Source of the DNA: Kiritimatiellia bacterium | GTDB taxonomy: Bacteria > Verrucomicrobiota > Kiritimatiellia > CAIVKH01 | Assembly: GCA_025054615.1 (NCBI GenBank) | Contig: JANWZO010000004.1 | Span: forward strand, 44,982 to 108,981 | DNA length: 64,000 nucleotides | Direction: 5' to 3' | Part shown: positions 36,813-39,325 of the stretch, piece after piece | How positions within the stretch are numbered: the first letter of the stretch is position 1 | How the letters are laid out: each line of letters starts with the position of its first letter | Program-made: the position numbers and the translations under genes | The notes under the pieces: model-generated | Databases searched by the model: none | Seen by the model: only the letters and a program-made list of their open reading frames with translations | What the model was told of the DNA's origin: nothing

Positions 36813-37967
36813 TCAACCTCCCCGAGCCAGGAGGGAATAGGACTCGCGCAACGCTTTGCGATAAGCCTCGCGGCTGTGCCGTTCCGAAGCGCGAGTGGCC
36901 GCTGCGGCGCCGAGCCGCTGCCGCGCGGCGGGATCGCGCGCCAACTCCGTCAACGCGTCGGCGAGGGCTGTCGGTTCCGGATCGACAAGGCGCGCAACCG
37001 AATCATCGAGGACTTGGGTGTGCGACTCGATGCGCGTCGCGACAATCGCGCGGCCCGCTGCCAGATACGAGTAGATCTTCATCGGCGTGTTCACGCCCCG
37101 AAGGCGCGGCGATACGAGGATATCGGCCTGCTGGAGATAATACATCAACCGTTCCAGCGGACGGGGACCCAATAAAAAAGCGCGCCCGGCCAGCCCGAGC
37201 GAATCTGCACGCGCCCTATAATTGGCAACATCTTGCTCGCGTCCCCCGATGATGACCAGTCGAAGATCCGGATCGCTTGCCGCGGCGAATCCTTCGAGGA
37301 GAAGGTCAACTCCTTGGTAATGTTCCAGGTTGCCCACGTACAGCGCGAGGGTCCCTCGAATGCCGAGCCGTTCACGCAGGGGCTCGGTCTCCGGCGGCAC
37401 GGGCGGGAAATCCATCGCCATGTCATGGAGCAACACGCAGGGCTTGCCGGGCGCATGCCTCTCCACCTTGTCGGCGAGGGCTCGACACACAGGCAGGACA
37501 AGGTCGGCGGAGCGGATCGCGTATCGCTCAAATGCGTACAGGATTGGCGCCACTAGGCGAAGCCACCCCCATTTTTCAATCAACTGGTCCGCCATCGACG
37601 AGTCCATGTCGTAGACCACGCGCGCGCCGATGCGCGAGGCGAGGCGCCGCGCGAAAAAAATAGACTCCTCGCAGGCGTGGACGACGTCATAGCGCGTTTC
37701 GCGGACAAGCCGCCCGGCAAGCTGAAAGAGGCCCGCATCGCAGCGCAGTTTGGCGACGGAAAAACCGATCGGCACGCGCTGCACACCCCGAGGGCGGCGA
37801 GCCCGAAAAATGCGGACGCCGGGCACCGAGACGTCCCGCCCAAACGGAAAGGTGACAAGGTCAACTTCATGGCCTTCCGCGGCAAGCGTTTCCGCAACCC
37901 ACTTGACGGCAATCGGCGTGCCGCGCTCCTCGTAAAACGGCTGGGGGGCAAGCAAAAGGACTTTCAT
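36813..37967 (-). CDS. GT4-family glycosyltransferase
   Basis: Start MKVLLLAPQPFYEERGTPIAVKW. The C-terminal half carries the GT-B retaining EX7E-type region (LVSPRLRGVNTPMKIYSYLAAGRAIVAT). ATGA overlap with the downstream gene. Confidence 0.8.
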   Translation of the reverse strand: MKVLLLAPQPFYEERGTPIAVKWVAETLAAEGHEVDLVTFPFGRDVSVPGVRIFRARRPRGVQRVPIGFSVAKLRCDAGLFQLAGRLVRETRYDVVHACEESIFFARRLASRIGARVVYDMDSSMADQLIEKWGWLRLVAPILYAFERYAIRSADLVLPVCRALADKVERHAPGKPCVLLHDMAMDFPPVPPETEPLRERLGIRGTLALYVGNLEHYQGVDLLLEGFAAASDPDLRLVIIGGREQDVANYRARADSLGLAGRAFLLGPRPLERLMYYLQQADILVSPRLRGVNTPMKIYSYLAAGRAIVATRIESHTQVLDDSVARLVDPEPTALADALTELARDPAARQRLGAAAATRASERHSREAYRKALRESYSLLARGG

Positions 37968-39325
37968 CGCAGCATGGCCCGAGCTTCGGGCATCAAACCC
38001 CATGCGCCGAGGCGGGCCCGCCGTGCCTCTTTCTCAAGCCGTTTGAGGGTTTGTTGCTTGCGGGAGTCCCACGCCCCCTCGACCCACATGCCGTGCGGAC
38101 GGGCAAGTCCCTCGGCGACGAGCAACTCGTCAAGGTCCCCATTCTGCGTGATGACGAAACCATAGTAACGGGGAAGCCGACTGTTGCCCTTGGCATCTTC
38201 CCATCGCGTCACCACCGTGAACGGGCCACTCGTGAGCAGGCGCTCGGTGAATCGTGAAGCCTCTCGCCCCAGCCTCAGCACGTCGGCGGGATCAACGTCG
38301 AAATATTCGGCCTGTTCGCGGATTCGTTCCGCATAGGTCTCCTTGGTCTCCGGACAGTCCACGTAATACAACCGGAAAATAAATTCCTTCCCCTCATGAA
38401 GGACATGAAACGAATCGCCATCATTGCCGCCTCGGCGCAGAAGCCGGCATCCCTCCAACACGGTCCATCCCGGTTGGCCTCTTATCTCGTCTGCGATGGA
38501 AGCCGTTCTGTCCGGGGAACCGGCCGCGATATGCTCCCCTCGTCGGAGAATCGGCGGTGCCTGGCCCGCGAGCGCACGGGCCAGCGCCTGGTCTTCGGGA
38601 ACGAGATTCCGAATCGAAATTTGAACCGTTTGTCCGTCATTTCGGCGCAGCACGACCCAATCGAGAACCATCTGGATGAATTCCGCGTTGACGCGCTCGC
38701 CCGAGGCGCTCGTCCAGACCCGAAAAGTCTCACCGGTCAGGAGGGTCTGCATTTCTGGCGGAGCTGCCTGAGGAGGCAACGGCTCAGGCGGCGCGGCGGG
38801 CGGTGAAGCCGCCGTAGGACGTAGCCGTTCCGACAGCCAGTCGGCAACCTGATGGTGACCCATCAGTGCGGCGATCTCCGCTGGAGTCAGTCCGTTTTCG
38901 TCCAGCGCCTCGAGGTCAGCGCCGCGTCCGGCCAAAAACTGAACGGCTTCGAGGCGACCGTCGCGCGCGGCCGCGTGAAGCGGGGTGAACCCAAACTTGT
39001 CTCGGGTGTGCAATCGGCCGCCCCCATCGAGCAGAGCCTCCAGCACCTGGACATGTCCTGCGAATGCGGCTGCGTGTACGGCGGTCGCGCCATCGTCGTC
39101 CATTTCGGTCGGATCCGCACCCCGCGCGAGAAGGGATCGGATCGTTTCCAGATCTCCCTGTTTGGCAGCTTCGTGAAGGGTGAGGGACGGTTTCTTCGGC
39201 TCGACCTCTATCGAAGAGTCGGAACGCGGCTTAGGTGGCGCGGCGGGCGGCGGTACGTCGCATCCCGCCAAGATGCTCACGAGAGCCAAAGGCAGGATGG
39301 TTACGAAACGCGACGCAGCCCTCAA
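37964..39325 (-). CDS. Lipoprotein with ankyrin repeats and C-terminal staphylococcal-nuclease (SNase/thermonuclease)-like domain
   Basis: Lipobox LAGC. 3-4 ANK units (TPLHAAARDGRLEAVQFLAGRGADL...). SNase blocks YVDCPE, RLPRYYGFV, DLDELLVAEGLAR, LEKEARRARLGAWG. Confidence 0.75.
   Translation of the reverse strand: MRAASRFVTILPLALVSILAGCDVPPPAAPPKPRSDSSIEVEPKKPSLTLHEAAKQGDLETIRSLLARGADPTEMDDDGATAVHAAAFAGHVQVLEALLDGGGRLHTRDKFGFTPLHAAARDGRLEAVQFLAGRGADLEALDENGLTPAEIAALMGHHQVADWLSERLRPTAASPPAAPPEPLPPQAAPPEMQTLLTGETFRVWTSASGERVNAEFIQMVLDWVVLRRNDGQTVQISIRNLVPEDQALARALAGQAPPILRRGEHIAAGSPDRTASIADEIRGQPGWTVLEGCRLLRRGGNDGDSFHVLHEGKEFIFRLYYVDCPETKETYAERIREQAEYFDVDPADVLRLGREASRFTERLLTSGPFTVVTRWEDAKGNSRLPRYYGFVITQNGDLDELLVAEGLARPHGMWVEGAWDSRKQQTLKRLEKEARRARLGAWGLMPEARAMLR

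Follow-up and report, generated by a model that had tools for sequence, protein, structure and literature searches.

A Putative Lipid-Anchored Thermonuclease with Ankyrin Repeats and an SHD1 Domain in Kiritimatiellia

The stretch of DNA considered here, hereafter called the window, comprises 64,000 nucleotides of contig JANWZO010000004.1 from a Kiritimatiellia bacterium, and carries on its minus strand a gene for a protein of 453 amino acids (aa; positions 37964..39325, TTG start) in which a lipoprotein signal is followed by ankyrin repeats (Ank), a small domain of SHD1 type and a complete domain of the staphylococcal nuclease family (SNase). This molecular identity, which follows from the list of open reading frames (ORFs), Pfam profiles and database matches, we hold with considerable confidence, and sequence as well as predicted fold confirms each of the three domains. 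A preliminary description of the same DNA had already recognized a lipobox protein combining ankyrin repeats with a complete thermonuclease domain, and Pfam, the signal sequence and the invariance of the catalytic residues bear this out. For the protein as a whole we favor the reading that it is a nuclease exported by the Sec pathway, anchored by lipid and degrading nucleic acid of the envelope or the extracellular space, which we regard as probable; that its physiological role lies in breaking down nucleic acid outside the cell or in the periplasm, to scavenge nutrients, to clear foreign DNA or both, is put forward only tentatively.

The Nuclease Domain and Its Catalytic Residues

The SNase domain spans residues 285-445 (37991..38473, minus strand), as defined by Pfam, alignment and the structural model. 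The family profile (PF00565; COG1525) matches residues 317-442 with an E value of 3.8e-10 and a score of 40.6 bits (cut-off 21) and recognizes 39 of 39 family members, and in a phmmer alignment the domain matches the nuclease of Staphylococcus aureus along its whole length (E 3.9e-8); the model predicts the OB-fold β-barrel with three helices that is expected of the family. In a residue-by-residue alignment to SNase, the catalytic core N301-D302-G-D304-S...R318...D323-C-P-E326 maps to 38348..38425 and the codon of R386, equivalent to R87 of SNase, to 38168..38170, both on the minus strand. D302 and D304, within the motif NDGDS, correspond to D19 and D21; R318, D323 and E326, within FRLYYVDCPE, to R35, D40 and E43; R386 lies in LPRYY. 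All six of these catalytic equivalents are invariant in the 39 full-length homologues, whose identity ranges from 39% to 64%, as they are in eight sister proteins having the SNase domain only. The position equivalent to T41, occupied by A, C, T or S, varies; in SNase this residue is a backbone ligand of Ca2+, for which side-chain variation is tolerated. The preliminary description had named the loss of catalytic residues as the sign of an inactive, Tudor-SN-like fold, by which the protein would merely bind nucleic acid or another ligand; with these residues kept in every one of the 39 members, we reject that possibility as very improbable.

The same 39-member alignment gives mean pairwise identities of 0.63 for the SNase domain, 0.53 for the SHD1 domain and 0.36 for the ankyrin domain. 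The SNase domain is thus the most constrained part of the protein, which implies that selection falls chiefly on the catalytic domain. Relative to the S. aureus enzyme, it has an insert of about 15 residues, helical in conformation, after the catalytic Glu. A further motif, G-D-L-D-E (residues 396-400), is invariant in the SNase domain of the family and has no counterpart in S. aureus nuclease. Among NCBIfam models, that of the calcium-activated nuclease EcnA (NF047969) aligns over its whole 151 positions with 33.5 bits and E 3.7e-8, against an equivalog cut-off of 180, scores by which the match is assigned to the same superfamily, not to the same protein.

Lipoprotein Signal and Domain Anatomy

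The N-terminus reads MRAASRFVTILPLALVSILAG up to the Cys of the lipobox and has two Arg, a hydrophobic core of 13 residues and the lipobox LAGC. Judged from its pattern, the layout MRAASR / FVTILPLALVSIL / LAG-C22-D fits the lipobox consensus [LVI][ASTVI][GAS]C, and hence a type II (lipoprotein) signal peptide of residues 1-22 (39260..39325, minus strand, as are all the following segments), with lipobox L-A-G-C22 and Asp at position +2. It is the sole hydrophobic segment of the 453-residue protein. The lipobox, noted in the preliminary description and read here as LAG|C22, is a family trait: at least 80 of the 97 members retain its Cys, and 65 of those 80 lipobox-bearing members (81%) have E or D at +2. 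In Escherichia coli, Asp at this position signals retention in the inner membrane, and by analogy the conserved acidic residue suggests that the nuclease lipoprotein possibly resides on the inner membrane.

An AlphaFold2 model built on 39 homologues, with a mean predicted local distance difference test (pLDDT) of 86, resolves the remainder of the chain. After the signal comes a Pro-rich tether (residues 23-45; 39191..39259) that is length-variable across the family alignment, without secondary structure (pLDDT 59-79) and predicted to be flexible. The ankyrin domain (residues 46-170; 38816..39190; PF12796/PF00023) is canonical: Ank_2 of Pfam matches residues 50-140 with E 1e-29 and 103 bits, against a cut-off of 27.3, and the model has four helix pairs at residues 50-168 (pLDDT ~98), consistent with the three to four repeats counted from the sequence earlier, and superposes on 4ANK with a TM score of 0.92. 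The other finding that would have spoken against the preliminary description, a lack of ankyrin profile matches, is thereby contradicted. Across the family, conservation in this domain is confined to the canonical structural positions. A second Pro-rich linker, disordered (pLDDT <55), occupies residues 171-196 (38738..38815) and has a mean pairwise identity of 0.24 in the 39-member alignment.

The middle domain (residues 197-256; 38558..38737) had been described as an SH3 domain. It is instead an SHD1 domain of the Sla1 type (PF03983) and not a canonical SH3, because the only significant match in the PDB to a profile of 22 homologues is 2HBP (E 0.0016) and because Pfam SHD1 recognizes 26 of 39 homologues at E<=0.01, with a best E value of 9e-8. 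In the protein itself the match covers residues 200-254 with E 4e-4 and 20.5 bits, below the gathering cut-off of 23.7; the assignment thus holds by fold and at the level of the family. The fold is that of the model, which predicts a small β-barrel with a helix at residues 200-255, and this barrel appears to pack against the nuclease domain.

Distribution of the Family and Its Sister Proteins

The exact protein is deposited at NCBI as MCS6770972.1 and MDW8458055.1, under the name 'ankyrin repeat domain-containing protein', from metagenome-assembled genomes (MAGs) of Kiritimatiellae/Kiritimatiellia; its relatives carry the JGI label "endonuclease YncB". The full architecture is found in about 98 clusters at 90% identity, with lengths of 430-450 aa, all of which are metagenome-derived, the named ones coming from MAGs of Kiritimatiellia or unclassified Verrucomicrobia. 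When residues 190-453 were searched against 1.84 billion representatives at 50% identity, 1475 relatives were found at E<=1e-3; of the 150 listed, no more than about a dozen span SHD1 as well as SNase. The preliminary description had suggested searching for homologous fusions in the superphylum Planctomycetes-Verrucomicrobia-Chlamydiae (PVC); the full-length form indeed occurs in at least 11 GTDB species genomes, labelled Kiritimatiellia, unclassified Verrucomicrobia or uncultured bacterium, plus one (L016) in which the locus ends within the gene. Searches of the literature on bacterial SHD1 function, on EcnA and on nucleases or ankyrin proteins in Kiritimatiellae returned nothing relevant, nor was any characterized protein or paper found for an Ank-SHD1-SNase lipoprotein.

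The SNase domain alone, at 45-57% identity, is found more widely, in over 560 species genomes of Verrucomicrobiota/Lentisphaerae. These sister proteins (e.g., P0107 and P0113) are the closest relatives of the nuclease domain, share its motifs and are all exported, but by a plain signal peptide right after which the SNase domain begins; in 45 of 68 loci (L017-L084) they end in one or two helix-hairpin-helix (HhH) motifs of ComEA type, and an SH3-like tail also occurs at this end. They have neither Ank nor SHD1, whereas the accessory modules of the Kiritimatiellia protein are N-terminal and of the protein-binding type. The sisters form a large secreted PVC subfamily, apparently uncharacterized, with the motifs NDGDSFH and FRLY[YF]VD.[AP]E (e.g., L073, 7950-8885). 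Variant forms also exist: a lipoprotein having SHD1 and SNase without Ank (P0098), a protein joining a coiled coil to an SHD1-like and an SNase domain (P0118), and two proteins with one ankyrin repeat fewer (P0080 and P0086). The sister proteins spread across PVC, together with these variants, therefore indicate one exported nuclease domain that has been re-equipped with differing accessory modules. Moreover, of all the evidence the recurrent HhH fusion in the sisters says most about the substrate and suggests, from sequence, DNA outside the cytoplasm, either in the envelope or extracellular.

In functional terms, the HhH fusions raise a question: Could the protein be a nuclease of DNA uptake? 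Its ankyrin and SHD1 domains would then dock the enzyme on a DNA-import machine of the envelope (such as a type IV pilus/secretin or ComEC), where it would nick or process incoming double-stranded DNA (dsDNA), as membrane-bound entry nucleases process incoming dsDNA in naturally transformable bacteria. The sisters are fused to modules of ComEA type, the periplasmic receptor for DNA that typifies competence systems, the two linkers are long and flexible, as befits an enzyme that has to reach a fixed partner, and prepilin-type genes lie near in the window (33466-34167) as well as in a distantly related locus (L003; N_methyl, T2SSF). However, comEC, comEA, pilQ and comF are not consistently adjacent in any clade examined, prepilin-like genes are so numerous in PVC genomes that their proximity means little, and the positions forming the binding surface of the ankyrin domain vary from member to member, which speaks against a single partner common to all. 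When the neighbors of the 68 SNase-only loci were clustered, no competence or nucleotide-salvage genes emerged; the neighbors are only housekeeping genes inherited within Chthoniobacterales, apparently (from their sequence alone) for a PfkB-type kinase, ThiE, BCCP and RluA. Among the Kiritimatiellia loci, the clustering separated two contexts that have nothing to do with each other. We consider a role in competence unlikely.

The Gene Cluster

The nuclease gene belongs to a cluster of four genes lying head to tail on the minus strand. In coding order these are a Hanks-type Ser/Thr kinase of 754 aa (39322..41586; Pfam Pkinase E 9.5e-46), the nuclease, a glycosyltransferase of family 4 (GT4; 36813..37967, 384 aa from the ATG at 37967) and, last, an FAD-dependent oxidoreductase resembling GlpD (DAO + DAO_C; 35316..36806, 496 aa). 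Read from the sequence, a TTGA overlap (39322..39325) sets the stop of the kinase (TGA) on the start of the nuclease (TTG), 8 nt upstream of which there is a GGAG, and an ATGA overlap (37964..37967) sets the stop of the nuclease on the start of GT4; only 6 nt separate the GT4 stop from the start of the oxidoreductase. The longest ORF of GT4 starts at 38003, and the ATGA overlap needs the internal ATG at 37967 (MKVLLL...); this start is the one chosen by an independent gene caller, and the N-termini of orthologues agree with it, so that the overlap is real. The independent gene caller, run on the identical contig from a public sequencing run, gives the same starts throughout and products of 754, 453, 384 and 496 aa.

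The preliminary description was right in placing a 4-bp overlap between the nuclease and a GT4 glycosyltransferase, although it had the nuclease overlapping the GT4 stop when it is the stop of the nuclease that overlaps the GT4 start. Similarly, the adjoining kinase is receptor-like as stated, with a single pass through the membrane, but lies 5' of the nuclease on the coding strand, not 3'. Four-bp overlaps of starts and stops are commonplace in bacterial operons and unremarkable alone. Consensus promoters and terminators, scanned for between 35000 and 42000, gave no more sites than shuffled sequence.

The identity of GT4 is sustained by Pfam (Glycos_transf_1 3.4e-22, Glyco_trans_4_4 6.5e-15); its matches in NCBIfam are all sub-threshold. 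The oxidoreductase matches DAO of Pfam with E 4e-37 and the NCBIfam model of glycerol-3-phosphate dehydrogenase with 148 bits, against a cut-off of 360. The kinase, in which only one hydrophobic window is present, consists of a cytoplasmic kinase domain (residues 10-261), a transmembrane segment (about 350-374) and a C-terminal ectodomain of about 380 residues; this last region (about 375-754) has no Pfam match even at E<=1, and a homology search with it returned a single match, probably because it was swamped by low-complexity words. The last 200 or so residues of the ectodomain are about 39% conserved in two related loci (L006 and L007) and absent from the orthologue in L001. At one end the cluster is flanked by a divergent gene (41689-42903, plus strand) that fuses a membrane domain of BrkB/YihY type to a cyclic-nucleotide-binding domain, and beyond the oxidoreductase by a convergent queA.

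Gene Context in Relatives

The order kinase, nuclease, GT4 and oxidoreductase is kept in relatives whose nuclease is at least 47% identical (47-64%; L001/L002 and L005-L007), with the oxidoreductase of L007 about 6 kb further downstream. It is also kept in L008 as far as the sequence reaches, which is inside the GT4 match, and the partial locus L016 retains the nuclease, GT4 and oxidoreductase in this order. The kinase precedes the nuclease in L001 and L005-L008, and in this clade GT4, with 67-74% identity among orthologues, is better conserved than the nuclease. The kinase, GT4 and oxidoreductase neighbors are all missing around nine more distant members (L003, L004, L009-L015); in one subclade SRAP and PyrF genes lie upstream, whereas another member stands alone between oppositely oriented genes. 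Since the order is kept in the closer clade only, the coupling is an operon arrangement at clade level that defines neither the function nor the family, and a functional reading of the link with GT4 is not supported.

These data also bear on the possibility that the four genes form an envelope module, in which the kinase ectodomain would sense or bind the lipoprotein, for example via Ank or SHD1, and couple the status of nucleic acid or envelope to the synthesis of glycoconjugates. A common strand, the TTGA and ATGA overlaps, the 6-nt gap, the order kept in the clade just described and an ectodomain that is uncharacterized are all compatible with such a module. Yet the nine distant members do without these neighbors, with SRAP/PyrF upstream in one subclade; the L001 kinase has no C-terminal ectodomain region, the oxidoreductase of L007 is displaced, and an order conserved in one clade can simply be inherited. 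We judge the module to be improbable.

The surroundings of the distant members show two further features. In L003 (3337-4041), as well as in L010, L012 and L013, a gene for SRAP, a YedK-like sensor of abasic sites, lies directly upstream of the Ank-SNase gene with pyrF nearby, which may be coincidental synteny. In L004, two Exo_endo_phos proteins, a TatD DNase and an OmpA-like protein lie within 7 kb of the distant member (10479-12378 and 14857-15305); this could be a neighborhood for scavenging nucleic acid and phosphate, and it is not seen in the other loci.

The window itself has an ordinary composition, with a flat GC content of 0.62-0.64 and housekeeping genes such as rpsB, tsf, pheT, glmS, queA, pgi and mfd; the locus is ordinary core chromosome of a free-living MAG. 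Horizontal transfer was considered and rejected on account of the flat GC and the core-gene flanks. A system of anti-phage defense was likewise rejected, as PADLOC returns generic domain matches only: the kinase matches PD-T4-6 (single-gene kinase) models, Ank the ankyrin models and SNase 'SNc+LTD' with E 1.4e-6, while GT4 and the oxidoreductase have no PADLOC match. Elsewhere in the window, a pair of neighboring AlgX-like SGNH proteins (345 and 801 aa) lies near an adaptor of HlyD type and an ABC exporter (the whole at 52500-55921 and 48921-51772, minus strand), and may belong to a cluster for modification or export of polysaccharide, whereas two tandem genes for LacI-type regulators with overlapping stop and start are found near a GH38 α-mannosidase (6855-9064, plus strand, and 1646-4741, minus strand).

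The genomic setting weighs upon another idea of the preliminary description, namely that the ankyrin repeats mark an effector or host-interaction protein. The protein would then be secreted to act as an effector or toxin on a eukaryotic host or on rival bacteria, its repeats serving for host mimicry; ankyrin repeats are enriched in the effectors of intracellular bacteria, and weak matches to Dot/Icm Ank effectors do appear in NCBIfam. Nevertheless, matches to these Legionella/Coxiella models (AnkY, AnkG, AnkH and AnkF) reach 18-44 bits, where the cut-offs lie at 500-1000, and they catch generic repeats only. The lipoprotein signal keeps the protein on the membrane of its producer, no immunity or secretion-system gene is adjacent, the locus is core genome with housekeeping neighbors, and the family occurs in metagenome-derived Kiritimatiellia with generic PADLOC matches. 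This we reject as the least probable of the alternatives. Among the roles once listed for a membrane-tethered nuclease, action on DNA outside the cell or in the periplasm fits best, and that of effector finds no support.

Comparison with Known Nucleases and Fusions

The nuclease of S. aureus (Nuc, or micrococcal nuclease; PDB 1STA and 2EY2) is a single-domain, secreted protein, whereas the present one is predicted to be lipid-anchored and carries Ank and SHD1 domains besides the insert described above. The closest functional analogues, for which we claim no orthology, are other thermonucleases with a lipobox, Hvo_1477 of Haloferax volcanii and the surface nucleases related to YokF of Bacillus subtilis, which likewise combine a lipoprotein signal with an SNase domain outside the cytoplasmic membrane. 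Hvo_1477 has been reported as important for DNA metabolism (PMC3929857). It differs in having a lamin-tail-like domain and a predicted helix-turn-helix and neither Ank nor SHD1; moreover, the hosts of these analogues, an archaeon and a Firmicute, are monoderm.

Fusions of ankyrin repeats with a nuclease domain also occur in the eukaryotic proteins ANKLE1/LEM-3 and RNase L, but these have unrelated nuclease folds (GIY-YIG and the KEN domain, respectively), are cytoplasmic or nuclear, and share homology limited to the generic repeats. In RNase L the ankyrin repeats act as a regulatory sensor. The SHD1 domain of yeast Sla1 (PDB 2HBP) belongs to a cytoplasmic, endocytic adaptor, while the domain found here is bacterial and predicted to be extracytoplasmic. 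Sla1 SHD1 reads NPFX(1,2)D signals (PMC2199253). No NPF motif was seen by eye in the sequence of the neighboring kinase, no motif search having been run.

Proposed Mechanism and Significance

How, then, would the protein work if it is the tethered nuclease that we favor? After Sec export and lipidation at Cys22, it would remain tethered in a membrane of the cell envelope, possibly the inner membrane, with the nuclease domain held away from its anchor by about 50 linker residues and the ankyrin domain. D304, D323 and the backbone of residue 324 would hold the Ca2+, with E326 acting as the general base and R318 and R386 stabilizing the transition state, to yield oligo- and mononucleotides with 3'-phosphates from whatever DNA, and probably RNA, reaches the periplasm or the cell surface. 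The ankyrin domain would bind protein, placing the enzyme or providing it with a partner, and leave its chemistry unchanged.

Several observations weigh against this reading. The residues that contact the nucleotide in SNase, K84, Y85, Y113 and Y115, are not kept, and the domain is near-neutral, with a family median isoelectric point of 6.3, whereas S. aureus nuclease is strongly basic. Pfam finds no HhH or other recognizable DNA-binding module in the protein, the ComEA-type HhH (PF12836) being seen only in the sisters. Genes for a nucleotidase, a phosphatase or a nucleoside transporter do not recur next to the nuclease in the loci examined, and a scavenging role is therefore without support from gene context. 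The rules for sorting lipoproteins are not established for this phylum. Finally, nuclease activity is a prediction for every member of the family.

A more elaborate proposal would be that SHD1 and ankyrin dock the nuclease on a specific partner in the envelope, such as the kinase ectodomain or a DNA-import/secretin complex, and thereby organize the processing of periplasmic nucleic acid or couple it to signals. We think it quite doubtful that this is so. If true, it would provide the first function for any bacterial SHD1 domain; to our knowledge, the only characterized relative of SHD1 is the endocytic cargo-recognition domain of yeast, and the superphylum of this bacterium has been debated for endocytosis-like uptake.

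In evolutionary terms, it is the architecture that is new: the kind of enzyme is well known, its chemistry is that of textbooks, the protein is already deposited under a generic name and only some Kiritimatiellia have it, with no sign of an unusual mechanism. Our understanding of nucleases, ankyrin repeats and operons is unchanged by the finding. What it does present is one catalytic domain re-equipped across the PVC superphylum, with HhH tails for binding DNA in Verrucomicrobiota and Ank and SHD1 heads for binding protein in Kiritimatiellia, an architecture through which the function of bacterial SHD1 domains can be approached. Kiritimatiellia are anaerobic degraders of polysaccharides; if the reading of a tethered nuclease is true, some of them would keep on their membrane an enzyme that faces the envelope or the environment, and this would bear on how these organisms use, or exclude, extracellular DNA.

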